A stretch of DNA of 61,121 nt, filler included, from Rhabdomonas costata (lineage: Eukaryota), in assembly GCA_019059605.1 (NCBI GenBank). It is 20 parts of 20 records of this genome, joined end to end, with 100 filler letters (N's around TTAATTAATTAA, not from the genome) between each part and the next. Parts side by side here need not be neighbours in the genome. Positions count along the whole stretch, not along the records: positions 3,065 to 6,028 come from JAHMHO010001638.1; 19 more parts are not named here. One strand, 5' to 3'. A program made the translations under genes and the position numbers. Positions 491-53,070 of this stretch are shown here, piece after piece. Every line of letters starts with the position of its first letter. Position 1 is the first letter of the stretch. Below the pieces are notes generated by a model. It saw only the letters and a program-made list of their open reading frames with translations, had not been told where the DNA came from and ran no database searches.

Positions 491-2251
491 ATGCCCAAGT
501 GCCCGTGGTGCAGGGTGCAAGTCCACAGCATTGTCGAGAACCGGGGGCTGATACTAGTGCCGCAGGAGAATTCCCCCCGGGATCAGATCGCCCCGCCTCC
601 GCGGCTTCCCCTCACCGAGGAGCGCGCCCGGCGGCAGGTGGAGATGTTCCTGGAGAACCACTGCTCGCGCTTTGCCGAGGGCACTGGGGCGAGCGGCACG
701 GACTTTCCCGTTTTCGCCACGGAGATCCAGAAGGAGTTTGCGGATCTGGTGGACCAGCTGTGGACGGAGCACTGCTGCTTCGACATCCCCGTTCTGGGGC
801 GGGACCCCCAGGACCCCGACAAGCCCCACCCCGGGGAGGTCGCGTTGCTGGCTGTAGAGGCGAACCAGGGCACCCCAGAGGTCCTGGCGGCCGTTCAAGC
901 GGACCCTACTCTGAATTACCTGCGGACGTTGTTTGGGTTGATCGACTACCAGAAGAGGGAGGAAATTGTAGCGTTTGTTCGGCTGATGCGGAGCACCCAT
1001 GCCAGCCTGGCGTTCCAGGAGTTCCGAGTGCACGTGTTGTGGGACACGGAGAATATCCGGCTGGCCGACACGGGGGAGTTTCTGACCGCGCTGGAGCAGC
1101 TGTTTACCTTTCTAGAGAAACAGGGTATCGGCAGCCGGTACCGGTTTCGGCTGTGTGCGTTTTTCACCGGGGGGAAGCCCCAGGCCCCGAGCAAAAGGAT
1201 GCTGAAGTCGCTGCGCGACCTGGGTTTTGAGCTCCAGGAGTGTCCCGCGGCGAAGAAGGAGGAGGTGGACCGCCAGATCGAGCGTCGAATGAACATCATC
1301 GCGGATGACTGCGATCCCCGGAAGACGCGCGTGGTGGTGCTGTCCTCGGATAAGGACTTCATTGCGCCGATGCAGATGCTTCGGGGCCGGGGCTTCCTGA
1401 CTTACTTCATCCACGACGCCAAGCCCGGTTCCGTGCACACGAAGGCCCTGGCTGTTCACGCTGCGGGGACGTTTTCGATCCGGGAGGTTCTGGATCGCCG
1501 GCTGCTCCCTCAGCTGTGCGTGTGCCCGCGGTGCCCGGGGCAGAAGCTCACCCCAGGCGCCCGGTGCACGTTGTGCGTGCCGTGTCGGCAGTGCAAGAAT
1601 TTCGTCCCCCCCACCGCAATTGTGGGGATGTCGCAGACCTGCGAGACCTGCTGCAGCTCCTTGGGGGAGTGCCAAAAGTGCAGAAACCGGTTCTTCCCCT
1701 CCCTTCTGGTGAGAACTGCGGGCGCCCCGGGGGTGGCGGGGGGCTTTCTTTGTCGGAGCTGCAAATGCCTCACCGGCGGCTGCGACCGCCCTGCCGTTGC
1801 CAACGGCCACTGTGTAGCCCACCAGTCTACCGCACCCACCGGTGCAGCTCAACAGCCCCTGACCCTGACCCGGTCACTGACGCCGCCGGTTCCGCTTCAA
1901 CCCGTCCTTGTCTCCGAAAGCCCCCAAAGGCCCTCGCCTAGCGCCCTCCGTCGGCTGTCGGGCACTCCCCCGCCACAACGGGAAGTCTGCCGAGGACGCA
2001 TCCACCGGTGGGTGGCCGGGAAGGGGTTCGGCTTCGCACAGTTTGTTGGGGTCCCTGGTATGGTCTTCGTGCACATCCAGAACTTCGTGCTGCCTGCTCC
2101 CGGCGATGACACCCTGCTGCGCCAGCCCGGGATCCTGGCCGTTGCCCCGCAGCTGGTGAAGTCTGAGAAGGGGATCCGGATCGCCCCGAATGACCGCTGC
2201 CTCTCCATCACTGAGACGATGCGCACTCTCACGGGAGGCCGGTTAAGCTGA
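491..2251 (+). CDS. NYN (PIN-like, MARF1/LabA type) ribonuclease + Cys-rich zinc fingers + C-terminal cold-shock domain; single long exon
   Basis: NYN acidic motifs VLWDTENI, KEEVDRQI, VLSSDKDF..MQMLRGRGF; multiple CxxC pairs and CxxxxCx9CxxH; cold-shock motifs GKGFGFA and VFVHIQNF. ATG at 491 follows a pyrimidine tract and CAG, so an upstream exon or trans-splice is possible. Confidence 0.8.
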   Translation: MPKCPWCRVQVHSIVENRGLILVPQENSPRDQIAPPPRLPLTEERARRQVEMFLENHCSRFAEGTGASGTDFPVFATEIQKEFADLVDQLWTEHCCFDIPVLGRDPQDPDKPHPGEVALLAVEANQGTPEVLAAVQADPTLNYLRTLFGLIDYQKREEIVAFVRLMRSTHASLAFQEFRVHVLWDTENIRLADTGEFLTALEQLFTFLEKQGIGSRYRFRLCAFFTGGKPQAPSKRMLKSLRDLGFELQECPAAKKEEVDRQIERRMNIIADDCDPRKTRVVVLSSDKDFIAPMQMLRGRGFLTYFIHDAKPGSVHTKALAVHAAGTFSIREVLDRRLLPQLCVCPRCPGQKLTPGARCTLCVPCRQCKNFVPPTAIVGMSQTCETCCSSLGECQKCRNRFFPSLLVRTAGAPGVAGGFLCRSCKCLTGGCDRPAVANGHCVAHQSTAPTGAAQQPLTLTRSLTPPVPLQPVLVSESPQRPSPSALRRLSGTPPPQREVCRGRIHRWVAGKGFGFAQFVGVPGMVFVHIQNFVLPAPGDDTLLRQPGILAVAPQLVKSEKGIRIAPNDRCLSITETMRTLTGGRLS

Positions 2252-3463
2252 AGTTGTTCTTCTTTTTCAATTGCTGCTGCTGGTTTTGCCGCCCTTTCGT
2301 TCGTTTCCGCGGTTCTTGAGCGTTTTCACAGAAACACATCCGCGTACCCCTGTGTGCCTTGATTGATTGCTTGCTTGCTCGCTCGCCCTTTGCCTATTTT
2401 GGTGAGTACCACCTTTGGCCCCTCACCACCCCTCTCTCACTCTTTCCCTCTATCTGTGTGTTGCTTTCTCTTGCTTTCCTCGCAATTGGGATATGAATAC
2501 ATGCAATGGTGAAGGGTCACGACTCGGCACTTTGGCAGGATCACATGCTTCTGTATCGAGAAGATTTTCCTCGGGTTTTTTGACCGCCTCGTGCCCGTTC
2601 GGTCGGAACGGAGGCAGTAAACTTGCTCGTTTCGGACAGTTGGTGTCCTGCCACAATGGATGTTGGAGGAAGTGCTTGAAGTTTCCATGAAGGCTAGGAA
2701 AGACTTTTAAGACTTTTACTGGCTTTCTTCTCGGACTATAATAATGGCGAAATGCAAGATTAATTCCAAGAGAAAGGTGTTGCCCGCTCCGGAAAATGGG
2801 ATGTGCGGACTATCTAGGGACGTGGGAAGTCGCGAGTAGCGAGAAAAACAGTTTCGCTAATTTCCCCGAAGCAGAAGTTGAAAGACAACATTTTGCCTAG
2901 CGCGTTTTTGTTTGAACAGCGATAACTCCTGAAATTGCGTTCCGAAACGTTTTCCAACCAACAANNNNNNNNNNNNNNNNNNNNNNNNNNNNNNNNNNNN
3001 NNNNNNNNTTAATTAATTAANNNNNNNNNNNNNNNNNNNNNNNNNNNNNNNNNNNNNNNNNNNNGTGTTGGTGGTTTGGGTGGTGGGGTGGGGGATCCGG
3101 TAGTGCGCTGTGCTGTTGCGCTGCACCTGACCTGGCCGAACCTTCAAACTATAAAAACTATGAGAAGGTAGGATTTAATATTTGGATGTTTTATGGAGGT
3201 GCTGACATTTATGATGCCATTGAAGTGTGCATTGGCTAACAAATCAGAGTTTGTGCTAATTACTTTTTATTACTTTTTAATTGCAGGGGAGCGGTGTTCT
3301 TCTCCCCAATACAAGGAAGCACACCCAGAAGGAAACCCCTTCCCACCGGCACAGCACTCAACTCCACCTTCACAAGTCGTGATAATCACACAAGAGGGAT
3401 GCACGTCTTCACTGTACCGCGGGGTCATGCCCATATGTCGTTCTCCTTATACGCCTGTGGCAG

Positions 3464-5567
3464 GAAGCAAGGGGATTGCCGGGATTGGCTGTCACATCCT
3501 CACCCTTTGGATGCCTGACGCGGCGCAGCGCACCAGCCTGAAGATGACCCAGATGGGCGGCGAGGGGGCATCATGGGTCGGCGAGGCTCCCTTTAGCACC
3601 CGCCCCCACGTGTTCCAGGTTCACCCTCCACCTCCGCTCTCATTTCCTTGAAAACCAAAAAGGTATGTAGCCCAGGTTTTTCTTCCCTTTCTGCCCTTCG
3701 TTTTTCAGAATATGGGGGACGGCACATACTACCACTCCGGGCTGTTATCGATTCGTCACGCCATTGCTACGAACACTACCATGACCTTCAAGCTGCTGTA
3801 CAACCAACCCGTGGCTCTAACCGGTGAGCGCTGAGTTTATGTGTTGGGTGTTGAGAAATGTCAGTTGTTTGGTTGGACAGAAAGTTCAGATCCAAATCTA
3901 TGACATTTAATACACACACATAGTGCAAGCTCTCTCGACGACTGATTTGGTTTTTGGGAACAATGGACACTGGACATTCCTGTTGTGGTCGCGGTTTGCG
4001 AGCATTTTGATCCCAAATCTTGCGCCAAAAGCAGGTGCCTCCCCGATTTTCCAGAGCATGTCCCGGCACTAAAGGTTCTGGACTATTCCGCCCCGACGAA
4101 TCACGGTATTCTGGGCGGCCTGGCTGGTGATCAATCCCCCGAGCCTGCAGTGGCGTAAACACTTGTCCGCCAAACGACTCTGTTTCCCTTTTCTTCTGAC
4201 ATTTTCTTCCAACACACCTTCGCTTCACAGGGGGGCAGCCCGTGGATGGCCCGCTGAGCCTGTCGCAGCTGGCCCACCAAATTCACTCTGAGGGGGTGGC
4301 CAAGCTGGTTGTAGTCTCTGTGGACCCCAAGGCGCACAAGCACACGGCCTGGCCCCCCGGCACTGAGGTGCACGCATACCATGTTGCTCCTTCACGCTCG
4401 TGTTTCTGCTTCGCCCCGAGGCCAGTTCTGCTTTGAGATCTTGATGCCTTTCTCTTCGCACGTACATAACCCATCTCTGAAAATTCCTTATGGAGGGGAT
4501 AAACCCAAAGGGTGGGAGAGCGCAGTGGAAGACTTGAAGCGGGGTGCACGACAGGTTCCCTGGATGGAGGGATGGAGGACTGTCTAACCGGTTTCAGCGC
4601 TACATAAACATCCCAACAAAACGGGAAGTATAAATGCGGTCGTTGTGCTTTTGTTATTCGTTGCCATGGCTTTGTACGTGCTGCTTCGTCGAATTAGCGT
4701 ATGACATGTGTCCTCCGAGTCTCTCGAATCATAAAATGCATAGGTTTACGTTTTGTGGATGACTTACCAACCAGCTTGCGTTAAGGATCCGCGCAAACAT
4801 TGACCGAATATGTATACATGTATTTCTATTGCGGCCTCGATGGTTTGTGCCACTCGTCGTTCGCAGTTGTACCCCAGGGAGGACTTGGACTATGTGCAGA
4901 AGCAGCTGCGCGAGGTTCCTGGGGTGAGTGTGCTGATCTACGATCAGGCCTGCGCCACGGAGACCCGCCGCAAGCGCGTGCGGGGCTCCCTGCCCCCTGC
5001 CCCGGCGCGGGTGTTCATCAACCCTGCCGTGTGCGAGGGCTGCGGGGACTGCGGTAAGAAGTCGCTGTGCGCCGCGGTGGCCCCTGTGGAGACTGAGCTG
5101 GGGCGCAAGCGCCAGGTCAACCAGTCCATGTGCAATACCGACCTGTCCTGCGTCACAGGTGTGTTTGACCCTTCCCAGTAGCCATCCAAAGTTTCGGAAC
5201 AAGACTCCGGCTATTAAAGCGCGCCGAGGCAATGATGTCGTATGTAGCACATGGTGGACCCCACACAGGGGAAGACCTGGTTGGGTTGGGACCAGAGTCG
5301 CCTTCTTTGTTCATTGTGTAGCGCCGTTCACTCCATTCTCCCCCGGTTGTTGCAGGGTTCTGCCCCAGCTTTGTGACGATCCCCAATCTCCCGCTGCGTC
5401 GGGTCACCTGCGAGGGCCTAGAGGATGTTCTGGGGGACGGAGCTGAGTCACTTCCCGCCCCTCCTGCGCCTAGTCTTACCCGTCCCTTCGGCTTGGCTCT
5501 GGCTGGGGTGGGAGGCACTGGTGTCTTGACCGCTGCCGGGATCATCTGCATGGCAGCCCACCTGGAG
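3464..5567 (+). CDS. Indolepyruvate:ferredoxin oxidoreductase family, fused alpha-beta type, partial; exons 3464-3618, 3709-3823, 4231-4367, 4867-5158, 5356-5567
   Basis: Manual GT-AG splicing gives one continuous frame: GIGCH, QMGGEGASWVG, TPP-binding NMGDGTYYHSG..LYN, TGGQPVDG, ferredoxin CEGCGDC...CNTDLSCVTGFCPSF, then the beta-domain start GVGGTGV. Confidence 0.93.
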
Positions 5568-6128
5568 GTACGCTCACCTGTGAATTCCGGCTCACGCCAC
5601 ACGTGTCGCTTGCTGCCGTTCGGTATTGGCTTCAGACCTTTTTTCTTTTGACAGAATGCATCACAAATTCATTTTAATTGGAAGTGACTTTGTTTCATTC
5701 TGCTCCTCTTTTGCGTTAAGCAGCCTCGTTTGACACATAGGGCTATTGTGTCCTGAACCACGTGTTAATTTGCATAACCAGACACACACAACCATCCACC
5801 AATAACAAAGCACGTTCCCCAGATAAGCATTTGGGTCATATGCCGTGCAAGGCCATATTCCTTGACCCAGCTGTCAAGCTGTCGATGACAACAACAACAT
5901 CATGTCATCATGATGTGTGGATAAACAATCAGCAAGAATGATTTGGATCTGGTAACCACTTTCTTCAGTTTTCTAAGAACCAAGTCCCAACTGAGTTTTG
6001 CCTTCCTTGTGGTGGCTAACACACCCCCNNNNNNNNNNNNNNNNNNNNNNNNNNNNNNNNNNNNNNNNNNNNTTAATTAATTAANNNNNNNNNNNNNNNN
6101 NNNNNNNNNNNNNNNNNNNNNNNNNNNN

Positions 6129-9093
6129 AAGCGGCACTGTGTCACCTAGCCGCAGCACCACATCCACGCCAAGTAACTCCTGGACATCCTCTGCAAGCCT
6201 CAGCCCCACGCCGAGCACGTCCATATCTTGCAGCCCAACTACAACACCCTCTGCAAGCTTGAGTTCAACGGGCACGGATTCAGTAAGCAAGAGTTGGTCG
6301 CCGAGCCCCACTCCAAGTGCATCGATTAGCGTGTCTGCGAGCGGGAGCCCCTCGTGCAGCATCACCGTGTCATCCACATTCTCGTCCTCTTCCACGAGCT
6401 CGAGAAGCTCGAGCCTGTCCCTCTCGCCCAGTACGACCTTCACACCAAGTGCTACCGGGAGCCTTTCGCAGAGCCTGTCGAAGACATACAGCCAGTCAGG
6501 GAGCTTTAGCGGAAGCGTTTCTGTGACCCTTAGCCCATCCGGATCCCGATCCAGGTCCTTCACCAGGAGTGCCTCAGTTTCCCTGACTGCGTCCAGGTCG
6601 ATGTCGACCAGCTTTTCGCGGAGTGCTTCAGCTTCAGCAAGTGCCACGGGTTCCCATCCCTTGTCTGCGTCGCAGACCGAAACCTGCTCATCAAGCCTCT
6701 CCGCCACTTCCACCTTGAGTCCATCGGCATCGCAAACTCCGTCTTTGAGCGCCACGAGCACCAACTCCCCGACCTGCTCTTCCCGTTCCGTTTCACTAAC
6801 CCCATCGATCTCCTTTTCACCTTCTGAAAGTTCAAGTTCGAGCTTGTCTTGCTCGGCGAGTTTTTCTCGAAGCCTGACATGCTCGGTGACTGAAAGTTCT
6901 ACAGCTAGTTCTTCATGTAGCAGTAGTGTGACGCCTTCTGTTTCGAGCAGCTTGTCTCCGACCATTACGTTGTCTTTGTCCACTTCTGGGTCTGTGTCAT
7001 TATCACATTCTCCGTCTTCCACCCCAACGGAGAGTTCAGCCACGGTTTCTCCAAGCTTCTCCTTCTCGAACTCCCAAACCCCTTCGCTAACTCCCTCTGT
7101 CAGCACGAGTTTGACTTCCAGCTCGACCACCACGACCTCCCTTAGCGCTTCGGTCAGCTGCACAAGGACAGCTTCATTAACGTTGTCCATTCACAAAACT
7201 ATTACTGTCACTCGGACACCCACTGCCATAAAAACTCGCACCCTCTCGCCTTCTCTTTCCCTAACCGGAAGCGTCAGTTCGTCTCCATCTCCTACATTGA
7301 CGTCAAGCTCGTCTCAGACAAACTCTCCCACCACAACCGCTTCTGAAAGTGGGTCATTGACTTGCAGCTCCTCACCCTCAGCGTCACCAAGCTCAAGTCT
7401 CAGCTCATCCATCACTGGAAGTCCCTCAATGTCCCAATCCCGCTCTCCGTCGTTGACTTCCTCGGGAACACTGTCGGGTTCAGGCTCTCTCACGGCTTCT
7501 TCTCGTTCTCTCAGCTCTTCCGTATCATTTTCAAGGTCCTCCAGTAACACCCCATCCCTGACGTCCTCAGCGACAGGTTCTGGAACACCGTCAATGAGTA
7601 CTCGCACTGTATCATTGACAAAGTCATGTTCCAAGACGTTCTCTGCGACATCATCCTTCAGCACGACACCATCTGTATCCCGATCGGGATCCCCAAGCAC
7701 CTCCCTCTCTTTGTCGTCCACACTCTCACCTTCACCTTCCGCGAGCCTTTCCCCCACTCCTACAGCCACAGTGTCGTTCACAATGAGCTTCTCTGGCTCA
7801 CCGTCGTCAACCCTCTCTCCATCCCTTTCTGGATCCCTATCAGGTTCACCAAGCAGCTCTGCATCGGCCACCCTATCTTCATCGTTCTCAGGAAGCGGCA
7901 CGCCTTCATCCTCCCGGACTCCTTCCCGGTCACCATCCATGTCTCCTTCTGGCTCTTTTTCCTCCTTCACTGCTTCTCGCAGCGTTTCCTGCAGTGGTTC
8001 TATTACTCCCAGCCAGTCCGGTTCCCTCTCCCCTTCGATTTCTTCAACACAGACGTGCACAGCGACCATCACAAAGTCACTCACTCCTTCAATCACCCTT
8101 AGCGGCAGTTTATCTCCGTCATACTCCAAATCGCCAAGCCCTTCATTAACCCCTTCATCAAGTCAAACACTCACATCAACAGGCAGTCATTCGTTATCGT
8201 CAAGTACCACTCCTAGTTTTTCCTTGACCTCTTCCGTGTCACAGACAAGCTCATCCTCTTGGTCCGTGTCACGGTCTTTGAGTATCAGCTCATCTGTTTC
8301 CACCACGATGAGCGCAACCAACGCCCTCTCCCGCAGTTTTTCTCCGACTGGTACCACATCTTGTACATCGACACCTTCCCTCACCACAACCGGATCGGCA
8401 TCAATTTCTACAACGCAAAGCAATACGCTCTCCCCCACTATCAGCACTTCGCCAACACCCACGCCGACTATTAGCGCCAGTGTTTCTCCAACGCCAACAC
8501 TCACTCTTACAGCTACGCTCACGTTCTCGAAAAGCTCCTCTTTTCTTCCGACGCAAACACGATCTTCTTCGCGCTCACCTACGCAATCTCACTCCTCACT
8601 TTCGTTGACACCCTCCTCCTCTGGCTCGGCCACCGACAGTTTTTCATCTTTCTCACGATCGTTCAGCTTTAGTATATCTGTCTCTAATTCACCATCCGCC
8701 ACGGAGTCTGTGAGTCTCTCTCCTACTTTGCGGAAGTCGCATACATTCACGGTCACTTGGACTCCCCTCTCGACACCTTCGCTCTCCGCCACAGGTTCTT
8801 TAAGTGCATCGGCGACAGCGTCTTCATCACATACATGCAGCAGTTCTTGCACAGCTAGTTGCAGTTCTTCAAACTCACTCTCTGGAAGTTTTTCGTCGCC
8901 AACCTCTTCCCACAGTCTTTCTCATTCAAGAAGTGCCACGTTATCCTTCTCGGCCTCGTTATCACCCTCGTTATCAACCAGCAGAACCGCATCGTTCTCA
9001 TTATCCAGCCTGCGAACTCCCTCCGCCACTCCATCTCCCTCATCCTCCAGTTCGCGAAGCGATTCAGTCACCCCAACCCGAACGAATTCCCTT
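6129..9093 (+). CDS. Ser/Thr/Pro-rich mucin-like stalk of a large surface protein (internal fragment)
   Basis: Stop-free frame spans the whole contig (about 990 codons) with alternating S-x/T-x low-complexity sequence. Confidence 0.75.
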
Positions 9094-9193: not shown

Positions 9194-11927
9194 CTTCTTC
9201 TTGCGCTCCTCCTCCTCGGCCTTCTTCTCCTCTTCCTCCTTCTGCTTCTCCACCTGTGTTCATATGTACGGGTTGGAGTTTTGTGGTTATGGTGATGGTG
9301 GTGGTGGGACGTGAACACTTGAACACTTGTAAACTTTGAACTTCAACAGTGCATACGCAAATGGGCAAGCCCCTCCCCCCCGCCCTCCCCCAATGAGAAT
9401 ATGCAGAACGGGAAAACAAAGGCGACCAGAACCCAACGGGGGGAGAGACGGTCGAAAAAATGAGGGTGACGCCCAATAAGAGACAAAAAAGAAAATAGAG
9501 CAGGACAGGAAATTAGAAAAAAAAATGCGGGTCTTCGGTCTTCAACCTCATCAGAGTGGCAGGGTAGGGGGCATGCCTCCATTCTAGCTGCCCTCTCCTC
9601 CTCGGTGAGGGTCTTCATCTCTTCTGCGAGCTTGGCCTGCGCTTCAAGCTTCGCCTTGGCCTTCTCCTCCCGGGCCTTCACCTCCTCTTCCACCTGTCGG
9701 GAGAAAGACCAAGCCCACGGACGAACATTTTCAGAACAGGCCAAACAAAACAATCCATCCGAAGGGCGGGAGATTCGAAACGGCCCCAATTCTTTGTGAG
9801 CGTCTGATTTTCACAAAATACGAACAATTCCTTCCCGCTACCATGAAAAGCAGCAATTGGCTTCAACGCTTGTGTGCACCTCCGTTAGCGCCAACGTATT
9901 TTCAACATACTACAGGCGGAACACGGACCGGGCTCCACAACTCAACGCTCAGCCGATGAGTAATTATTGGTCACCCGTATTTGCATGACCTCACGGTTAC
10001 CCCTGAAACCAAATTAAACACAGGAGCCGCAGTGCCAAAAAGAAACGAGCAGCTGGGAAAATCGGCGAAGAGGGGTGAGGGGCTGACGGTAGATACAACA
10101 AAGAGCAATTGCAAAAGAGTGAATGCTACGCTTGCAGAAGAAGAAGAAAGACCGCCGAACAAAAGCAAAATCTCACGGTAAACCGTGAAATGGCGAAATG
10201 TGACGAACATTTCAAGTTTTCTGAGTTTCTTCGATCAGCCTAGCGTCTCTCGCAATCTCTCTCTCGTTGACCTTCCGGCGCTTCGCCTCGGCCTCCTCCC
10301 GGGCCTTCTCGGCCTGCGCCAAGCGCTCCGCGGTCTCCTCCTCGCGCTTTCTCTTCAGAGTAGCCGCCTGCACATCCCAACCACGTCACACAAACACAGA
10401 GACTCACGAAAACCACCCCATAGTTCCCAGCCGACTGGAGTAGGCTCCACCTTAAACTGAGACTTTTTTGTAACCTGAACAGAACTCGGGCTCTCGGTGT
10501 AAACCTTGCGTCTGTGCAGCGTTCCCAGTAGGCCCCGATGCAGCCCTTTTGAAGCAACCCGACGCATCTTTGTGTGCCAAGCTACACCGGCAACTGGGGT
10601 TATGCACCTGTACTCAAAGACACCCATCCCAAACCAGCGGAAGGAATATACGGCAGAAAGATCTGATCGAAATGCTGCAATCTAATTTCTCAGTTTCCGG
10701 GTGAAGCTAACCTTACATCCCCCGGGATTGACGCAGAGCCTAATTGGCAGCTGACTCATTCGCCCCTTCACGTGCCAAAGTGGCGATGCCAAGTCACCGC
10801 AGTAGAAGGTGTGTGGATCCCTATTTGCACTGTCGCTCTGTATCGGGTGAGCGCTTGAGAGATCCAAAACCAGGAAAAACAGGGGTGCAGCACCTGCTCG
10901 TCGGCCTCGAACTTCTTTTTCCGGAGGAAGGGGAGGATCTTCTTGGCGTTGAAGTAGCTCAGCATCTCATCAAAGGCGTGCGCAAACAGGCATGCCTCCA
11001 CAGTGTCCTCGCCTACCGATGGACCAGGAACGACAACTACTAGGTAAGTACAACAATGCAACAACGCATGCGATGTGTCCCATGATAAAGGTTTACGGCA
11101 CATTTTACAAAGTGCCTTCCAGCAGACATAAGTGTAGGTGCCCAACCTCATCCAAACAAAACAACTAATCCATTTTCTGCGATGTTTCGCTGCCAGTACG
11201 TGCAGGATGCCGTAAATCGTAAATGGACGGCGGAAGAAACTTTCCAAGGAATTCCACATGAGACAAAAGCCCCCCGCCCAAAAAAAAAGTCCCCAGGGAA
11301 GTTCTGAAAACCGGTCTCGTAAGTGTTGTAGTCCATCAAGGCGGCGAGGGACATCTCCACTGGCTTCAGGACAACCTTCTCGGTCTCCTTGGTGACCTTC
11401 CTCTTGACCATCTTCTTCACCTTAATCTTCTGTGAAGGGGCAACCCCGCCATGGATAGTTTACACACTTCACAGGATAGATAAACCATATCATCCAGGTT
11501 TGGGTCTGAAGACGTTCCCTTCGTTTGAATTCGCAGAAGGAAACAAATCACAATACGTCGCCTTACCAATATCCACACCCATTTTGACGATGCCATGACC
11601 CTCCCCCCTTCTATGTCTTTGGTCCTTTGCGGCTGGTAAAAACCGCCCCTCAAGCCCCACCTGCTTGGGCTCCTCCTCCTCCTCCTTCTCCTTTTCCTTC
11701 TCCTCGCCCTCGGGCTTAGCCTCCTCAGTGTCGCCCTCCGTCTTCTCCTCTTCGGGGGCCTTCTTGGGAGGCTCCGGGGCGTCCTCCTCAACCTCAGTCT
11801 CCACATCCTCCTCGACCTCCTTGGCCTCTTTCACCACAGCCTTGTGCAGCTCTGTCTTGTTCGAGAGATCCCCGAAGGCCTTCCACACGTCCGGAACCAG
11901 CACCACGGTGTGCTGGGTCAGCCCAGA
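9194..11927 (-). CDS. CCAR1/DBC1-like charged nuclear protein, partial, 6 exons
   Basis: Spliced exons give VVLVPDVWK..acidic tract..SLAALMDYNTYETGEDTVEACLFAHAFDEML, resembling the CCAR1 motif LLDY..FEVSLFAELFNEML, followed by E/K coiled coil. Exon phases are consistent. Confidence 0.6.
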
Positions 11928-12948
11928 CTGCCGCAAAGCAGCGTGGTGTGTGTGTGTGCGTGATTCAATAAGGTTTATAGCTCACTCTGAGCTGGAAGTG
12001 CTTTGTGTTCGACTCGCTCGGTATCGCCGCTTTTGATTCTAGCGCCGACGAGAACTGCGCCGGTCGACGTGCTATCCTTGAGGAACCGCTGGCCCCTGCC
12101 GAATCAAACACGGCCTCCTGGGGCATTGTCAAAAACAGTGAAAGTGTGTGTGTGTGTNNNNNNNNNNNNNNNNNNNNNNNNNNNNNNNNNNNNNNNNNNN
12201 NTTAATTAATTAANNNNNNNNNNNNNNNNNNNNNNNNNNNNNNNNNNNNNNNNNNNNCTCTGCTCAGGAGTGCAGCCAGCAGTAGTCAGGACTATTGCTG
12301 GCACCGCGCTAGCAAGGTATTTTGAGTTTTTACAAACATTTGGCGTCTATGCAAAACAAAATTTTTCGAGTTTTTTTTTTACAAAGACAGGCATTACATT
12401 TCATATGTGATTTTGCCCCATTTGGAGGCATGAATTCCAGTTTTAAGAGGATGCGCACACTCAGAAATTCGGATTATATTAAAAACAAGTTTGTCCTTTA
12501 TGGACATGAAAAAAGGACTTGTCCTTTCAATAAGGACCAAAGCAAGGCGCCCCCCAAAAAGTAATGTCGGTCTGCGAATGCTTGCAATTCAGCTGAAGTG
12601 AGCATTTAAGGACCCTTTTCAGGTCTTTTTGAGCCTTCACCAGGCTTGGAAGTTGCACTTTGGGATCTTCACAGGCCTGCTCAGCCTATGCTTTCGGACG
12701 GGGCTGCCTGGTGTAAGGGTCGAGCCAAGGAGTGCTTCATGCTGGCACCAGAGTGGGCTTCCTTATTAAAACTTCCGGCTCCCTTTGCTAAAACATAAAC
12801 ATAAAGAACAGTAGGCTGGCATGGCTGCTCCCAGGTGTAACAGCAACGGTTTTAGGAACTGTTCTCAGTTGCGAGTGAATGCATCTCTGTCTACGTGTGC
12901 GCATCACCGAATGTGTGTGTGTGTGTGTGGTGCGCGCGCGCGCGTCAC

Positions 12949-21170: not shown

Positions 21171-22567
21171 AAACCTGTGGGAGCGGGTCTCGACCCACGC
21201 AGTGAAGGAGTCTGAGCACCCCTTCATAGGCAGTACGTTGTCAGGCTCCGCCCAGGGCGCGCCAGAGCGCAGTTTCGGTGATTCCCCGCTGCGGTTGCGA
21301 AAGCAGATCTGCCCGGCCACTGCCGCAGCGGGGAATCACCAAAACCNNNNNNNNNNNNNNNNNNNNNNNNNNNNNNNNNNNNNNNNNNNNTTAATTAATT
21401 AANNNNNNNNNNNNNNNNNNNNNNNNNNNNNNNNNNNNNNNNNNNNTGAAAGGGAAGGAATTGGATATTGCATTTTACATTTTCGCCCCTCCTGTTTCAG
21501 CGATTTTGTTGTGTTACTGTCTGGCTGTGTGTGTGGTGGGTAGGAAAACTTCCGCTCGCCCCCCCCCCCAGGTTCCCTGTGGTGTCTGAGGAGCAGCAGC
21601 GGCTTTGGCTTGCTGAGCACAAGGCACAGCTTTCAGCCCAGCTGGCAGCACATGACGGCTCTTGGAAGGAACTGTTTCAGCTGTGAGGCGCCGATTTTTT
21701 GGCATTTTTCTGCTCGGACCCTTCCCTGCGAGGTGCTGCGGACCGCACTGCTGCAGTGTAACAACAGAGCATTCAGCTTTCCTGCGGCCGCTGAAACCTT
21801 CAGGGTCCTTGCGGGTGGACTGTGTTGATTGCCACCGCCGCCTGGGTGAGTTTTCAGCATATGCCGACGGAGTTCAGTTTGCCAGATAGGTCATCAGATT
21901 AGTTTAGTCCAGCAGCGGCCGCCCGTCATCGACCGAAGCGAGCATTGGGGCGGTGTTCCAGCGTTAACATGCTTTTGCACAGGAAGAGGGTCATGCGCCG
22001 CTTTCGTCAGCCCTGTTTTCCTTTTTGCCGTGATGACGAAGAAATCGATCTCAACTTAGTCAGTTCCCTATGGGGGGCGGGCTCAAATTCAAGCCCTCCC
22101 ATAAGGTCATCTGGCAACGAAAGCAAGCAAGATGCATGACTGTTAATCATTATTAAAGGTTTAGCGTCGTTGCACGTTAGCGGTGCCAGACGGTGAGCGA
22201 TTCCCCTCCCTCCAAAAAAAGCTTCAGCTGGTAACGAGCACGTTGGGGTTGATCTTGCGGCACAGGGCAAGTTCGGATTCACCCGATTTACAAGCAGGGG
22301 GCGAGCGGTAAAGAGCTCTATGTCTATTTTGGCGGTTTAGCGCTCAAACCAATCTGATTGCCCTGAAGGCCCAGGCCTCACGAAATGTTCATCTGGCGAT
22401 GAAGGCGAGCGGAAATTGTACAATAATTGTGCACAGAAGCAGTGTTAAACGTTAAGCACTGTGTATGCAAGTACGTAAGTTCTCAGTTCGGATGTACCCG
22501 ATTTACAAGCTGAAATTTTATTCCTAACTTCTCGTCGCAGCCTTTTCTCATCTTCTTCCCCTCAAAG

Positions 22568-23470
22568 ATGATGTCGTCCCTGTCCGAGAATACATTGTTA
22601 TGCAGCTTTCGGTTTCTGGGACAAAAACCACAACTTAGCCTGCGGCTGGTTTGCAAGCAGCTCCGAAGACTTGTTGATGAGAATCTCGCCCCGAATTGGA
22701 AGATTGTTCTCCGCCGCTCCCTCCCGTATAGTATCCGTGGTCAAAGTTTGGCTCAGAAGTTGCGGCTTGCGTGCTCTGCCGCGGTGATTTGCGTGCAAAA
22801 TACGAGGCTCTTGGAGCGTCTGCTTGGGACCGCAACCGAAATGGCTGCGCCGCCTGCATTGTTCTTGTTTCCCAACCTCACGTCTCTGGTAGTCCGAGAA
22901 ATCAATATCCGAATTGCGGGACTGCGTGCACTTGCCTCTTCCTCTTTCCTCACTAACCTTTCCTCCTTGGATGTCAGCGCTAATGAGATTGAGGCTGCGG
23001 GACTGGAAGCACTTGCCGCTTCCTCATTCTTCCCCAATCTGTCCTCCCTGTATGCAACGCACAATGTTATCGGAGATGCGGGAATCCGAGCATTTGCAGC
23101 TTCCTCTTTCTTTCCCAAACTTTCCTCCTTGAACGTAAGTTCCAATGCAATCGGAGATGCGGGATTGGAAGCACTTGCCTCTTCCTCTTTCTTCCCTAAC
23201 CTTTCCCAGTTGGATGTGAGCAGTAATAAGATCGGGGTTACGGGATTGCAAGGATTTGCATCTTCCTCTTTCTTCCGCAACCTTTCCTCCTTGTACGTGA
23301 GTAACAATGAGGTCGGAGATGCGGGAATCCAAGCACTTGCTGCTTCCTCATTCTTTCCCAACCTTTCCCAGTTGAATGCGAGGAACAACGCAATCGGAGT
23401 TGCGGGACTGGAAGCACTTTCCTCTTCCTCTTTCTTCCCCAACCTTTGCTCCTCGGAAATATGTGTTTAG
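22568..23470 (+). CDS. F-box-like N-terminus + RI-like 28-aa leucine-rich repeat protein, intronless
   Basis: N-terminal LRLVCKQLRRLV (F-box tail); about 7 repeats of FPNLSSLxVSxNxIGDAGLEALASSSF. Confidence 0.85.
   Translation: MMSSLSENTLLCSFRFLGQKPQLSLRLVCKQLRRLVDENLAPNWKIVLRRSLPYSIRGQSLAQKLRLACSAAVICVQNTRLLERLLGTATEMAAPPALFLFPNLTSLVVREINIRIAGLRALASSSFLTNLSSLDVSANEIEAAGLEALAASSFFPNLSSLYATHNVIGDAGIRAFAASSFFPKLSSLNVSSNAIGDAGLEALASSSFFPNLSQLDVSSNKIGVTGLQGFASSSFFRNLSSLYVSNNEVGDAGIQALAASSFFPNLSQLNARNNAIGVAGLEALSSSSFFPNLCSSEICV
22866..23447 (+). repeat. 84-bp tandem coding repeat (LRR units)
   Basis: Near-identical recurrences of ATCGGAGATGCGGGA..GCACTTGC..CTTCCTC..TTCTTCCCCAACCTTTCC at 84-bp spacing. 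Confidence 0.9.
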
Positions 23471-24516: not shown

Positions 24517-26489
24517 GGTAGTCCAGAGCGCCCCAGTTCACGTCGGTGAGGAACTGTGTGGGGTTCCCATCCGCCATCGTCACAGAGTGTACAAAGCAGC
24601 CCAACGAACTGCTGACCAAAGGACAATTTGCACGTGCATCCTCATGCGCGATAGGGAATTTTTGGTGAGTTACTCCACCATATCGCTGCCAAATGCTCTC
24701 ATCCGCATCCTCTGGACAGCGGCAGAATACCAACAACCTCTCTCCAAAGCTGCTCTTTGCAGTGTGGCAGCCAGGCAGACGATTCGCCATGCAGCACTGC
24801 ATCCCACCCGCGCAAATCGGAACGACGAAGTACCTGGGAAACCATCGCGGACTTCCGTGGGCCCCGCCACACCACAGCGTCGTCCGGGCCGATCAGGAAT
24901 CCAATGGAGATCACGCACAGGCGGCCCCCTCCACCTGCGGCAGCCCCAGGTAGGGCTACCTCAACAGGGGTCCACCCATCCTCACTGCGAGAGCGTGAGA
25001 AAAAGAGATGTCGGTCTGCGCAAAAACATCACTTACAATGTGCGCAACCAGTGCGTCAGAGAAACAATGGAAGGCAGAACGCTCTATTTGTATATTTGCC
25101 ATAGGCTTGAAAGGGCTACTTTAGAACCCTTGCCTTGTTGGCTGGATGCACAGCTTTTTCGGAACGGGCCGTTTGGGCTGGGCTCGAATGCTTCTATTTA
25201 GAGCTGCCCTTGAGGCCGTTACGGGCTCTTTTGCCTCTACGCGGGCGTGGAAGGAGCTTGACAGAACTGTTTCTTCTGCTTTCAGAAAAAGAGAAGCCGA
25301 CCGCCTCCACGCAATGCCAGGAATGATTGAAACGATCCAAAATCTGCAATGCTGGTAGGTATAGGGGTGTGCGGAAAGGAGACAAAGTCAGAAGCAAAAC
25401 GCCACGGATTGCCGATAAGAAGCAAAGGTGCATCACAATGTTCCGTGCCTAAGTGCCAACCTGGAGACCTTCCGTCGAGGGAAAGTTGCTGCTACTGTGG
25501 TAACAGGAACATAACCCAATCTTGTAAATTTACCGATGGATTCAAAGCTGACCGCTCGTCGCCACCATGCTCGAAACCGTGCAACGATCACTGAGATCCA
25601 CCATTCATTAAACTTCTCTCTGCCGCAGGCCTGTAATGCTGACTCTACCTCTGCCTTACTTCACGGCCCTCGACGCCCATAATCTTCGGCACGCTAGGGC
25701 CGCAGATGTCGACGTCCAGCAGACCCACCCGCCGGCCCTGAGAGGCTAGGCACCACGCCAGCTGGCAGGCCACCGTGCTCTTCCCAACACCCCCTGTGCA
25801 CCACCACCACCACAACCACCACGAACAACAACCCCGCCAAGATAGCATTCCCACCTCTCCGTCCTTCAACCTGGTTATTGCCATTAAACGTTCGTGTTGT
25901 CATCGATAAACGCCCTCTCATTTGAGAACTAGGTACTGTTTATTGAATTGATCGTCGTGCCGGAGCAGGGGCAATGTGCTACCCACCCTTCGAGTGCCGC
26001 TATTTCTTGCGCAACCCAATGTGGTGGAAGGTGCTTGGTTCACCTCTGGGGGGAGGGAAGATAAATCGTCCAAACAGATGTGTGGTCTCGAAAAGCCTTT
26101 TTCGCAACAGCACCTTTCTGGAAATCTCTCACCATAAATCAGACAGCTTGCTAAAATAAAAATCCAGGTCAGCGGGTAGGACGCCAATGGAAAAAAGTGT
26201 AATATGTAAAGGTTGACTTAGTTTGGTTAGATCAGTTCGCTTCAACCCAGTCTAGATGTATATCAAAATCTTCCCGTCTCCGATTCTTTCACCAACTTGA
26301 GCAAAAGCGGGAAAGCCGGAAGATTTCGCATGTGTATGATCTACTGCGACCGCATTAAAAAGATTCCTCGCACCCAGCGAGAACTCCAGTGAAAAAAATG
26401 GCGGGTGCCAGATGCACACCTTTGCCGCTCATTACGAGCACAATGTGCTGCACAGCGGCCAACCGGCTCTCCTCAGCGGCGCTCGCCAT
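24517..26489 (-). CDS. NUBP2: Cytosolic Fe-S assembly P-loop NTPase Cfd1/NUBP2, 5' part; exons 26489-26420, 25793-25649, 24984-24834, 24553-end
   Basis: [62 protein letters not shown]; lacks the N-terminal Cys cluster of Nbp35. Confidence 0.9.
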
Positions 26490-30161: not shown

Positions 30162-30978
30162 GTGTGTGCCTGTTCGGGTCTTTGAGTCACCTTCAATCAC
30201 CTTTAAAACCTCACCGCACCCTAATTCCACCGCCACCCCGTTTTTTCCGGTTCCTCCACCTTCATTTTCCGCTCATGTCCTCTTCCGTTTTCTGCCCGTG
30301 CTACTGTGCCTGCAACTCCTGGCACGCCGTCTTTTTCACTTTCCTCCCTCCTTTTTTTTTTTGCCTTTCTACCGCTGTTGTGGGTGGTGGACATGGGCCG
30401 CTGGACGTTGACCCATGTGGGGTCGTGCCAAAACTGTGTGACGCTACGCCACGGCAAGTATATTATCCCTTTTTTTGCTCTCGCAGGTCTCTGTGACCTC
30501 TGTGGTTGAGGGGCAAAGTCGAGCCACCACAACCNNNNNNNNNNNNNNNNNNNNNNNNNNNNNNNNNNNNNNNNNNNNTTAATTAATTAANNNNNNNNNN
30601 NNNNNNNNNNNNNNNNNNNNNNNNNNNNNNNNNNGGTGGTGTGGCAGACCACCTCTGCAACGACCTCGCAGTCTGTAGACTTTCTGGCCGGGCGAGTCTT
30701 TGACGTGGTGGAACTTCAGCTCGCCGCGCGGGTGTGCCATCGCAATAGGGACGAAGAGTGTTTTGCAGACCCCATTTGTCTGACGGAAACGGCACGTTAG
30801 TGTTGCGTATCGTCCATTACCATTTCGTGCAAGCCGTTGCACTATTGTTTACCTTGGTAAAATGCCTCCCAGCTGGCACTACGATATTGTTATCCGGTGA
30901 GTGTTTTACTGCCGTTCCTGCTGCGACTGGGGCCGCGGCGGCTTGCTTTGGTTTCCCTTCCTCGTTGTGCGCACTCAG

Positions 30979-32016
30979 GTCGATGTGCTGACCCGTGAGA
31001 TGGCCGCTGTCTCCCAAATGGGTGCCGCAGCTGTCCTGATGGACTCTTCCGTGACCAGCCTGCAGAGCTATTTCTACCATGTCCTTGCCTCAATCAAGGA
31101 CCCGTTTGTTGTTGGGTACTCTTCGACCCATGGCCTGCACGTCGAAGCGATGCGGCTTCCAAGTGGGGAGTTGCAGGTCGCGCTCCGTGATCCCGAGCAG
31201 GCCAATGTGACTGAGCCCGAGCTGCTGTACTGGGCAGTCAACTCCCAGCTGCAGAAGCTGGCCCTCGCCTCCACCACCCCATACAACCCTTTGGTGCGGC
31301 CCTGGTACACCGCCGTCTCTTCGCAAAACTACACTCCGGCCTTCTCCGATATCTACAAGCACATCGTGCTAAACAACACACTGATCACTCTAGGGGTCCC
31401 CGTGCGCTCGGCCAACGGCTCTGTAATGGGGGTCTTTGCAGTGGGATATGACCTGAGCACTCTGCAGGAGGCCATTCAGTCGGCCCACCAAGCCCTTCGC
31501 ACCTCGGGGATGCTTCTTCTTCTCACACAAAACGGCAGCCTGATTGCGAGCTCCGTTCCAAGCGAGGCGCCTGAGGTTCTGACGACAATTCGCTCGCTGT
31601 CGCTGCTCCGCGAGGCTGTTCCCGGGGATGTTGTTGAGGCCACGGTTGCCCCGTATGGGTCGTGTTTTGTGCTGCAGATGATCATTTCTGGGCAGGTCCG
31701 ACCTGACTTCTATGCCCACGGGCTGAACTGGAGGCTATATGTGGTTCTTCCCCAGTCGGACTACAAGGCCGGCGTGTGGAAGAACAATCGCCTTGCCGTC
31801 ATCCTCGTGGCCGTGTGCTGCGTGACCTTCTTCGTGGTGCAGCTGTTCTTCTACCGAATCATCCTGGTGTTCCACCTGCGGACGTTGCTGGATGGGCTTG
31901 TGCGGCTCCGGGGGGCCGTGGAGTGCTCCATTGGCTTGAGTGAAAGCAGTGTGGTGGACATCGAGTCGATTCCGGCGAGCACATCGGTGTTCAGGGAGAT
32001 TCGTGTCTTGCATCAG
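30979..32016 (+). CDS. dCache-domain transmembrane receptor exon (sensor + TM + degenerate HAMP-like segment)
   Basis: YNPLVRPWY, FSDIY, ITLGVPV..GSVMGVFAVGYDL, LNWRLYVVLPQSDY, hydrophobic helix LAVILVAVCCVTFFVVQLFFY; CAG/GT borders. Confidence 0.8.
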
Positions 32017-32442: not shown

Positions 32443-32482
32443 CCCCATGGCACGAGCGTAGCGCTACGCTCGTGCCATGGGG
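32443..32482. repeat. Perfect 40-bp palindrome
   Basis: CCCCATGGCACGAGCGTAGC|GCTACGCTCGTGCCATGGGG, flanked by CATCAAGC direct repeats at 32427 and 32484. Confidence 0.95.
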
Positions 32483-35757: not shown

Positions 35758-36439
35758 ATGGCACAAGTTAGTCCGGAGAAGATGTTTGAGGAGATCGTGG
35801 CGCAGTCGAACCAGTTTGAGCAGCACGAAAAGGCCTTCCAAGAAGTACGCCCCTTTATCTCTCTTGTGCTGCTTGATCTGTTCTTCTCCAACGTGCTTGG
35901 GGGGGGGTGCTGCTTTGTGCTTTGTCGAACAATCTCCGCCGCTGCACTCTTGAGAACTAATGCCCGCGATAAAATCCCTCTTATTGTTTTGTGTGCATGT
36001 GCATGTGCATGTCCATCTGCATTTACGGGGGGCGATTGTGACAGCTCCTGATGGAGCTGGAGGGTGACGAACTGATGGAGCCCTTCCGCAAGGAGTACGA
36101 GACGCTGCACCATTCCTTTCTCAAGAGCCACGAGAGTGAGAAGCGGCTGATTAAGAAGTGCCAGGACCTCTCCGCAGAGATTCTGGCCTGCCAGAACAAG
36201 GTATGTGTGTGTTGCGTACTCTCACACAGAGAGTTTGAAGTGTGTGCTTTCTCCTTGTTTCAGCACTTTTGAACCAACAAAACGAAATTAAGGAACCTTG
36301 GTGATGGGCACAGGTTCGGATTGCAGAGGAGCTTACCGCGGGGGACCACTCCACGATCGACTCGCTGCGCAAAGAGATCGGGAGGGCTCGGCAGAAGCTT
36401 GAGGTCAGCCGCGACAGCGAAGTCCAAAAGAAGGAGGAC
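35758..36439 (+). CDS. CFAP58: Cilia/flagella-associated protein 58 (CCDC147), first three exons 35758-35844, 36045-36200, 36314-36439
   Basis: FQELLMELEGDELMEPFRKEYETLHHSFLKSHESEKRLIKKCQDLSAEI..NKVRIAEEL..D.STIDSLRKEI matches the CFAP58 N-terminus; all phase-0 GT-AG joins. Confidence 0.82.
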
Positions 36440-39928: not shown

Positions 39929-41183
39929 CCTGAGCTCCCACTTGGATCACTTGGGATGCACTGATGTGGTCTCGATGTTCCTGGGATCGCTTCTGGGTGT
40001 CTCCGCGCCGTACACCATTCACGACATGGCGCTGGACGCGGCGGCGCTTCTGGACCACCTTGGCGTGCCGCAGGCCCACCTATGCGGGTTCAGCATGGGA
40101 GGGCTGATCGTGCAGCAGATGGCGGTCAGCTTCCCGGAGCGTGTGCTGTCACTGACCACGGTGTCGTCGCCGGCAGGTCTGAGCGGGACCTCGCTTCGTG
40201 GAACGATAGCTGTGCTTCAGCTGAGCTCGCAGGACCCCGACGATGACATCCAGCGTACGGTGAATGTGGTGAAGAGCGTATCCACTCGGAAGTACTTTGA
40301 TGAGCAGGAGTACGTACGTTTTTATGTTTCCGAAATTAAATGAATTGGTTGCCGAGCGGTTTTCTTCTGTTTGGGATGGGGATGCCTCCCAGTTCTTGTG
40401 AAATTCAAGGTTTGGGTTAGCAGAAAAGGCGATCTACAGATTGCCCACTTCTCAAGCTGGCCGGGATTTTGCGATTCTTGCCGGTGAGACCTGTTGCAAC
40501 CAAAATTGGCGTCAAAAAAGTGTGTGCACTGTTGTTTGCCCTTTTCATTTCGTAGATGCGAAGCCTGCGTGCGGGAGGTCGTCGCTCGCTCTCCATACAT
40601 CGGAGGGGTGCCCCGCCAGCTGGCCGCCATCCTGGCCACGGGCTATGGGGTCCCTGATGTCCACACCGTGCGGGCCCCGACGATGGTCTTCCACGGCACG
40701 GAGGATCCCATCGTCCCCCCGGAGTCCGGGAAAGTCCTGGCGAGCGCCATCTCCGGGGCGCGGCTGTTCATGCTGAAGGACGGGGCCCACGATCTTCCCC
40801 CGGAGATCGATGAGATTCTGATCGACGGGCTGAAGGAGAACGCCGGGATCGTGGACCAGCGCCTGCCTGAGCACTACGCTGGGTACGAGGCGGAGGGCCG
40901 CTCGGAGCCCTACAATCATGACGAGTATGATCAGCACTACGACAGTTACGCGCGGGAGAACGACGATGTGTCGTCTTCGGCGCAGTACTCTGCAGAAAAT
41001 TGGTCGTTTGACTCCCACCCTCTGTCCGCCTCGACACCTTCCGATTTCTCTGCCTCTGCCTTATCCTCCGATGGTGATTATGGCTATCCCCCTCAGGAGG
41101 ATGCCTACGCTTCAGGCTGGGCACTGCGGTCTTCGGACGAGTCCTACCCTCCTGAGTATGCCGGGCGCGTGATCTCTGCGTGA
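39929..41183 (+). CDS. Alpha/beta hydrolase (bacterial-like esterase), 3' part; exons 39929-40309, 40556-41183
   Basis: PYTIHDMALDAAALLDHLG, nucleophile GFSMGG, HGTEDPIV, GAHDLP; acidic low-complexity tail. Confidence 0.9.
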
Positions 41184-52430: not shown

Positions 52431-53070
52431 ATGGACGAGGAAGAGCAGAAGCGGGACACCGTGAAGATCTACAACCCGACCTATCTGATGAAGCCCCGGC
52501 CTGGCACAAAGTTTATCCGAGTGACCGTCGAGGGAATCATGCAGCGTATCCTGGAGGCTAGGCTAAAGGAGGTGAAGTACGACGCCGATGAGATGGTCTG
52601 CGTGTCTGCGTTCTTGGCGGGTTTTGGCGGGGCGGACCACAGCCAGTATCGCAGCGTGTTGGCTATTCCGGATGTCTTGGGCTGCTTCGCATATGCTTCG
52701 CGGCGCAAGATCCCAGGTGAGAGGCTGTTCTGAGGGCTTCACGAGCGATAGTTATGGCCGGGACTGACACGCAGCGAAATTTTGGGACCCAAGTTTTTGG
52801 TTAATAGATGCGAGTTTATGCGGTTTATTGGGATTTCAGATCAACCTCAGCAAGGAGCTGTGCGCGGAGATCCAGGCCGAAGTTAAGAAACTGGGCTACG
52901 AGCGCTACAAGCTGGTCACTCAGGTGGTCATCTCCGAGGCCAAGGGCCAGGGCCAGCGCGTGGCCTCACGGTGTCTGTGGGACCCCGAGCAAGACAACTA
53001 CGCCCAAGCCACCTTCCGGAACAACACCCTGATCTGCGTGGCCATCGTGTTCGGATGCTACTGGGAGTGA
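52431..53070 (+). CDS. Tctex-1 family dynein light chain (TCTEX1D2-like); exons 52431-52595, 52840-53070
   Basis: PTYLMKP..KF..ILEARL..KY.., RYKLVTQVVISEAKGQGQRVASRCLWDPEQDNYA..FRNNTLICVAIVFGCYWE*; complete gene. Confidence 0.92.

Follow-up and report, generated by a model that had tools for sequence, protein, structure and literature searches.

Rhabdomonas costata is a euglenid and a primary osmotroph, and the introns considered here come from a 61,121-nucleotide (nt) stretch of its genome, referred to below as the window. The window (GenBank assembly GCA_019059605.1) consists of 20 separate pieces of about 2964 nt, joined by spacers of the form N44-TTAATTAATTAA-N44 that recur every ~3063 nt (2965-3064, 6029-6128, etc.). 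Because these pieces are unlinked, genes are truncated where a piece ends, and any feature that crosses a spacer is therefore an artefact. This applies to many inverted repeats from a scan of the whole window, the output of which consisted mostly of spacer artefacts. The central element is an intron at 3824-4230 on the plus strand, located in a gene fragment of the indolepyruvate:ferredoxin oxidoreductase (IOR) family, whose two ends are complementary over a considerable length. The initial annotation of this DNA had proposed that GT-AG introns with base-pairing ends recur across unrelated genes, either as part of a structure-guided system of splice-site definition or as derivatives of elements with terminal inverted repeats (TIRs).

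The IOR-family fragment spans 3463-5567 (+) and contains four complete GT-AG introns (3619-3708, 3824-4230, 4368-4866 and 5159-5355, positioned by tblastn with the bacterial IOR protein P0004), after which a further donor, the fifth, stands at 5568. It aligns to residues 445-742 of a 1152-residue bacterial protein. Among the best 120 of 3138 matches to the IOR exon, identity is 64-72%, and every named match is bacterial. To judge from these protein comparisons, the gene looks like a bacterial gene acquired by the euglenid and colonised by introns since, and because it is of bacterial type, its introns would be post-acquisition gains. Possible eukaryotic exons were seen at first in short proteins that resemble IOR and lie on long contigs (P0001, P0017 and others), and these were rejected because they read like frameshifted bacterial genes. 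The intron at 3824-4230 is 407 nt long, has GT-AG borders and lies in phase 1, between an upstream exon at 3709-3823 (NMGDGTYYHSG...ALT+G) and a downstream exon at 4231-4367 (GQPVDG...PPGTE), both found with P0004. Its removal rejoins ALTG|GQPVDG in agreement with that protein, and its border can slide by +/-1 nt with the mRNA unchanged.

The ends of this intron form a long predicted terminal helix. According to RNAduplex and folds of the whole intron, the 5' arm comprises 58 nt from the first intron nucleotide, G1 (3824-3881), and the 3' arm 67 nt (4162-4228), including an unpaired insert of 16-18 nt. The 3' arm ends at C-3, which is paired with G1, so that the terminal AG remains free. Between the first 70 and the last 80 nt the helix has 45 bp and an energy of -48.0 kcal/mol, and it is retained in both the minimum-free-energy and the centroid fold of the full 407 nt. 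Exact sub-repeats within the arms lie at 3856-3864/4196-4204 and 3840-3847/4209-4216, and position +4 pairs with -6, which is the register of nonconventional introns. The long imperfect terminal repeat recorded in the initial annotation is thus present and longer than had been claimed, and all sequences quoted there were recovered at their places. Of 3940 windows of 407 nt taken at random from these pieces, with local inverted-repeat alignment scores averaging 12.9 (standard deviation 2.5), 0.28% reach the score of 23 found for the intron. When the score was anchored at the ends and compared with 3000 random GT..AG windows, p was 0.009 for DNA pairing and 0.005 once G.U pairs were counted as well. 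By 70/80-nt duplex energy the intron stands out less, as 4.5% of the random windows reach its value (p=0.045).

Further introns were drawn from 59 kb of sequence. A GT-AG-only gene finder, written for this analysis, misplaced three of the 18 introns of a first set relative to homology (11037 corrected to 11013, 9546 to 9576, and 52727-52850 to 52596-52839); it was therefore regarded as unreliable, and only introns with protein colinearity were kept in the curated set of 18. Besides the four IOR introns, this set includes six in a CCAR/DBC1-like gene on the minus strand (11928-11985, 11430-11660, 11013-11311, 10368-10893, 9694-10271 and 9254-9576, by comparison with P0125), three in NUBP2/CFD1, also on the minus strand (25794-26419, 24985-25648 and 24554-24833, by homology), and, on the plus strand, two each in CFAP58 (35845-36044 and 36201-36313) and DNAI2 (53917-54219 and 54391-54760, by comparison with P0121) and one in a gene for a Tctex2-type light chain (52596-52839, by homology). 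The five introns other than that of IOR for which the initial annotation had given positions were all upheld by homology. A set of 20 adds two probable introns on the plus strand with borders from the gene finder only: 30732-30978, in a gene with a dCache domain, and 40318-40563, in an alpha/beta-hydrolase gene with Pfam Abhydrolase_1 on both flanking exons. The former precedes a long exon (30979-32016, +) encoding a dCache/PDC-type sensor domain (E 3.8e-10, under the Pfam cut-off), a domain type mostly known from bacterial receptors.

The support for individual borders comes from several sources. In NUBP2/CFD1, the border of 25794-26419 agrees with the P-loop motif SGK|GGVGKST, the next junction is spanned without a break by PDB chain 6g2g_A, and the junction of 24554-24833 rests on reading frame together with what we take to be a conserved motif. 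In CFAP58, 35845-36044 was placed by tblastn with P0128, P0137 and P0150, and 36201-36313 by continuity in the PDB chains 9e5c_1b and 9y6s_9Z; the first exon (27 residues) had no match in PDB, and its junction was fixed by the tblastn alignments. The three DNAI2 exons (136 residues) align to residues 1-138 of a 605-residue relative and are identical at 134 of 136 positions to P0124, a Rhabdomonas costata protein in EukProt. Three relatives found with one DNAI2 exon (3 of 4 candidates) belong to clusters named in EukProt for Rhabdomonas costata, Entosiphon sulcatum and Ploeotia vitrea. A metagenome scan for euglenid DNAI2 yielded 17 loci, which are of no use for covariation because every one is intronless and only 37-57% identical.

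The splice signals of these introns are of the spliceosomal kind. Among the 18 curated introns, borders are GT-AG in 17 and GC-AG in one (9254-9576), the upstream exon ends in AG in 13, and C occupies -3 in 17. All 20 introns of the larger set have GT/GC-AG borders, with no non-canonical case; the gene finder behind the two probable introns admitted GT-AG alone, but the 18 curated borders come from protein colinearity. On the exon side, the flanks conform to the AG|G pattern of spliceosomal introns. Donor positions +3 to +6, described in the initial annotation as very variable, are so in part: G stands at +5 in 9/18, +3 is G or A in 14/18 and +6 is C in 11/18, giving a loose GTRNGC consensus. 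Just two of the 18 begin with GTGTG, which is the 5' consensus of E. gracilis GT-AG introns, complementary to U1 small nuclear RNA, in the available text of the survey of that species (PMC11170887); a search of the window with Rfam gave 0 matches, and thus no U1 gene. That several acceptors have no polypyrimidine tract was borne out, since pyrimidines make up 41% or less of positions -25 to -4 in six of 18 introns. Most introns (18/20) can slide by 1-4 nt with no change to the mRNA, because their junctions carry short direct repeats, such as GCAG|...GCAG| in 10368-10893; slidable introns account for 84% in E. agilis, according to excerpts of its intron survey (PMC12501133).

Two members of the CCAR/DBC1-like gene (-) show peculiarities of their own. 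The GC-AG intron at 9254-9576 (GCATGC...ACACAG) is colinear with P0125; splicing from the GT donor at 9546, which lies in frame and 30 nt further on, would lengthen the protein by ten residues, making alternative 5' splice sites possible. The intron at 11928-11985, GT-AG and 58 nt long, contains a CA-repeat tract and fits the short-intron class described for E. gracilis GT-AG introns in the portion of that survey used here (PMC11170887).

The specificity of end pairing was examined intron by intron in 19 introns of at least 80 nt, for which the full-length fold supplied an expected count of pairs joining the first 20 nt to the last 25. Chimeras were also built by exchanging the last 30 nt of an intron for those of each of the others in turn, producing a 19x19 matrix in which every true combination receives a row rank and a column rank. 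Four introns rank first in both directions (1/1): the IOR intron 3824-4230 (+) with 13.3 expected end pairs, the NUBP2/CFD1 intron 1 at 25794-26419 (-) with 15.4, in which U2-U9 pair with -2..-9 in a G.U-rich stem, the DNAI2 intron 2 at 54391-54760 (+) with 10.6, in which GGCAGC at +8..+13 pairs with GCTGCC at -9..-4, and the probable intron of the dCache-domain gene (30732-30978, +) with 14.3. Close behind are the CCAR/DBC1-like intron 9694-10271 (-; 8.05 pairs, ranks 1/2), where a GA-rich 5' end faces the pyrimidine tract and GUC/GAC pair at +1/-3, the probable alpha/beta-hydrolase intron 40318-40563 (+; 9.6, ranks 2/2) and the CFAP58 intron 36201-36313 (+; 10.5, ranks 2/3). Intermediate pairing is found in 24985-25648, 24554-24833 and the CFAP58 intron 35845-36044 (+; 6.1, ranks 3/6), where CGCCCC pairs with GGGGCG in an offset register.

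In the remaining nine of 19, namely the introns starting at 3619, 4368, 5159, 11430, 11013, 10368, 9254, 53917 and 52596, end pairing is near zero (0.00-0.47; ranks 10-19). Two of them are CCAR/DBC1-like introns on the minus strand that do not rise above the controls: 10368-10893 (0.21, ranks 13/13), whose stem CTGCAC/GTGCAG exists and loses out in the full-length fold, and 11430-11660 (0.02, ranks 17/17). Thus, of the five short end stems named in the initial annotation, those of 25794-26419 and 54391-54760 held up fully, that of 35845-36044 in part, and those of 10368-10893 and 11430-11660 did not, whereas four introns absent from that list pass the fold test (9694-10271, 36201-36313, 30732-30978 and 40318-40563). 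Specific end pairing is therefore seen in about 4-7 of the 19 introns and almost none in nine, and in these predicted folds the distribution looks bimodal. Double maxima, in row and column at once, occur in 4/19 introns versus about 0.5 expected if cells were exchangeable. Permutation of partners over the full-length folds gave p=0.006 for all 19 introns, 0.045 for the 17 curated ones and 0.025 for the 18 that remain when the IOR intron is left out.

Pairing of isolated ends was assessed with RNAduplex in the 18 curated introns, true 5'/3' partners being compared by permutation with all mismatched partners. The difference is clearest for ends of 15 nt (true -7.36 versus mismatched -5.56 kcal/mol, p=0.010; 0.016 without the IOR intron) and 20 nt (p=0.026; 0.052 without it), and p reaches 0.072 at 10 nt, 0.080 at 30 nt and 0.090 at 50 nt. 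When the 3' arm was reversed, a control that preserves composition, the effect was absent (p 0.18-0.40). End-anchored scores with G.U pairs gave p=0.08 against mismatched partners in the 18 introns and 0.008 in the 20. The sense strand pairs more stably than the antisense strand by 1.4-2.1 kcal/mol, its excess over mismatched pairs having p=0.07-0.08 at 20-30 nt, and G.U pairs contribute 46 of 227 in the ten best introns. These values lean towards end pairing as a feature of the RNA, at a level short of significance.

The explanation preferred here, with a probability of roughly 0.5, is that these are spliceosome-type GT/GC-AG euglenid introns, a subset of which has complementary ends forming a helix that would help to pair the splice sites at the RNA level. 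The IOR intron 3824-4230 is the clearest case. It combines canonical junctions with a stable predicted structure joining its ends, and introns with both properties have been described in euglenids as conventional/intermediate, in the available text of two earlier studies (PMC3935182, PMC4770533). It is therefore assigned to this class, and an end-joining structure is likewise predicted for 25794-26419, 54391-54760 and 30732-30978. What the initial annotation offered as an analogy to euglenid end-pairing introns is consequently closer than an analogy, as the host is itself a euglenid and end-paired GT-AG introns are a described class. In this model the helix would bring together distant and poorly specified splice sites, with variable donors and often no pyrimidine tract, for recognition by the spliceosome, which it would not replace. 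For the IOR intron, the unusual length of the arms may in addition be a relic of its birth, perhaps from an insert with inverted-repeat ends, and this gain would have to postdate the acquisition of the bacterial gene.

Several observations weigh against this explanation. The whole-intron folding energy of 3824-4230 is ordinary (z=-1.24). The comparison of the first with the last 40 nt, which the initial annotation had proposed as a check, is not significant (true -17.20 versus mismatched -15.68 kcal/mol, p=0.106; 0.30 without the IOR intron). By the measure that Gao et al. 2024 used, with ends of 10 nt linked through a U7 loop, the energy is zero in 5/18 true pairs and in 26% of mismatched ones, which is no difference. 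Among the 16 curated introns other than that of IOR, partner permutation of full-length folds gives p=0.14. The anticipated relation between weak pyrimidine tracts and stronger pairing has the right direction without reaching significance (rho 0.40, p=0.10; after correction for sticky arms, rho 0.26, p=0.29). Moreover, the sample of 18-20 introns is small, six window sizes and several statistics were tried, and the paired class was delimited post hoc, after inspection of the data. Enclosing the 5' splice site in a helix might equally well impede the binding of U1. Finally, genome-wide surveys of E. gracilis and E. agilis report little or no terminal pairing of GT-AG introns (PMC11170887, PMC12501133); the excerpts of these surveys on which this statement relies compare intron classes and contain no swapped-partner control. 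A structure-guided system recurring across unrelated genes thus receives weak support, from ends of 15-20 nt and from full-length folds and not from 40-nt ends, and this support is carried by a subset of introns. The observation of end pairing holds for the IOR intron and a few others; as a general rule it was overstated, and in kind it is already known.

Chance complementarity picked out by eye, with the long imperfect repeat as one lucky draw among about 20 introns, is an unlikely account, even with some of the same numbers in its favour. The splice consensus (GUG...CAC|AG), together with 3' ends rich in G/U and 5' ends rich in GA, yields many stems of 6-9 bp, two of the five short examples rank 13th-17th among swapped partners, and neither the 40-nt test nor the 10-nt measure separates true from false partners. 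For the IOR intron, the duplex energy is only at the 4.5% quantile mentioned above, and the per-intron p of 0.003-0.009 needs multiplying by roughly 20 introns inspected. However, the helix of this intron is anchored exactly at the termini, is collinear over 58 nt and comes first in both directions of swapping. The number of double maxima exceeds expectation, and the signal vanishes with reversed arms of the same composition.

The intron ends could also be decaying TIRs of DNA elements resembling MITEs (transposable elements of the miniature inverted-repeat type) or introners, in which case the helix would have no role in splicing. The longest arms do sit in the bacterial-type IOR gene, whose introns appear to be post-acquisition gains; for the nonconventional introns of euglenids, descent from MITE-like elements has been suggested (PMC3935182, PMC11282704, in the passages available), and dinoflagellate introners carry inverted repeats at intron ends according to part of a preprint (10.1101/2020.10.14.339549). 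Beyond the arms themselves, positive support for descent from TIR elements was not obtained. The junctions of 3824-4230 (...AACCG | intron | GGGGGC...) bear no target-site duplication, the flanks ...CTAACCG and GGGGGCAG... having one G in common, and the Symbiodinium pattern, a 4-nt repeat GHNN with CT at +5/+6, is absent. No second copy of the intron exists in the 59 kb, where the arm motif has 6 matches versus 4.65 expected. Terminal-repeat scores at the DNA level are not enriched in true over mismatched partners (p=0.18; 0.44 without the IOR intron), and the better pairing of the sense strand, with its many G.U pairs, also leans towards RNA. Taken together, this makes an origin of the pairing in element relics alone rather improbable. 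A dinoflagellate introner reading, suggested by composition and AG|G acceptors, was dropped because DNAI2 matches Rhabdomonas costata, a euglenid, and because the repeated tetramer/CT pattern is lacking.

A much broader proposition is that a quarter to half of the ordinary GT-AG introns of Rhabdomonas depend on an end-to-end helix and that structure-guided pairing predates the nonconventional introns of Euglena. The latter would then be helix-bearing introns stripped of GT-AG signals, or the present introns would serve both pathways. This is considered quite improbable. In the available part of the paper on the R. costata genome, nearly all introns are given as GT/AG and end pairing is not mentioned (PMC8219788). 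Least probable of all is that these are hybrid introns excised by the structure-guided, circle-forming nonconventional machinery of euglenids despite their GT-AG ends: 0.8% of E. agilis introns have both motif types and pair like nonconventional ones (PMC12501133, in excerpt), dual excision was left open by Milanowski et al. (PMC4770533, in excerpt) and the +4/-6 pairing of the IOR intron is in the nonconventional register, but the nonconventional code (5'-N3-CDG.../...CH'G-N5-6|R) fits none of 20 introns at any mRNA-compatible border, exon flanks are spliceosomal (AG|G), and R. costata has just about seven candidate nonconventional introns in the accessible text of its genome report (PMC8219788).

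Other features of the window are recorded as observations in their own right. An intronless gene of 583 codons with an NYN domain lies at 491-2239 (+). The piece at 6129-9093 has one frame open throughout on each strand, Ser/Thr-rich on the plus and Glu/Asp/Val/Leu-rich on the minus strand, with a strong GC skew of -0.3. Copies that are 75-88% identical and recur about every 81 nt form a tandem array at 22906-23457 (+), within a 318-codon open frame. Repeats with potential for folding include a hairpin at 21272-21345 (23-nt arms, 96% complementary, 28-nt loop), a perfect 40-nt palindrome at 32443-32482 (20-nt arms, no spacer) and a 26-nt inverted repeat at 43778-43803/43992-44017 (+), 77% complementary, with arm 1 in a predicted coiled-coil exon and arm 2 188 nt downstream. 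The last may be another exon-intron pairing or a product of chance.

Whether "intermediate" introns are real or accidental has been asked by euglenid workers since 2001, and in their available text Canaday 2001 and Milanowski 2014/2016 leave the reality of the class open (PMC3935182, PMC4770533). This small sample suggests that the answer may be bimodal, with specific terminal helices in one part of the GT-AG introns and none in the rest, and that the genome and transcriptome already at hand for R. costata would allow the question to be answered at little cost. Helices that matter would connect conventional with nonconventional splicing in euglenids; should they prove unimportant, the class could be given up. 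The presence of the main intron in a gene of bacterial origin would further make it a dated intron gain.

Among known systems are spliceosomal introns in which RNA structure bridges the splice signals. Examples are yeast introns with "zipper" stems between the 5' splice site and the branch point, and teleost introns with GT/AC repeats, reportedly described by Lin et al. 2016. In these, intramolecular pairing makes the effective distance between U2-type splice signals shorter and can offset weak signals. Their paired segments adjoin the splice sites, whereas in the IOR intron the 5' splice site is itself part of the helix, which stops 2 nt short of the 3' splice site. Introners and MITE-derived introns, said to have been treated by Huff et al. 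2016 and Gozashti et al. 2022, resemble the IOR intron in being bounded by inverted repeats, here in a gene where the gain of the intron would have to be recent. Unlike introners, which occur in many similar copies and whose flanking duplications often supply a splice site, it has no target-site duplication, no splice site derived from a duplication and no copy family in 59 kb.

Nonconventional introns of euglenids are characterised by excision as full-length circles, later than the conventional introns. With them, as described in the available text of the Euglena surveys (Nomura et al. 2025, PMC12501133; Gao et al. 2024, PMC11170887), the present introns share terminal pairing that juxtaposes the junctions, the lack of a pyrimidine tract in several cases and slidable borders. 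They differ in their GT/GC-AG borders, their spliceosomal-looking flanks and the absence of a CAG/CTG-type motif at +4..+6/-8..-6 in all 20. The nearest counterparts are the conventional/intermediate introns, which also occur in euglenids, beside ordinary introns of the same genes, and combine GT/C-AG borders with a predicted RNA structure joining the ends. These are known from a small number of introns in the tubulin, gapC and fibrillarin genes of Euglena, Phacus and their relatives, as far as the excerpted sources extend (PMC3935182, PMC4770533). For Rhabdomonas, no report of such introns was found in the literature searched, supplements lying outside that search. The helix seen here is long (45 bp), and the swapped-partner control added by this analysis suggests that the trait is carried by a sizeable minority of introns. 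What is new in the present introns is the species, the length of the helix and a hint of bimodality.

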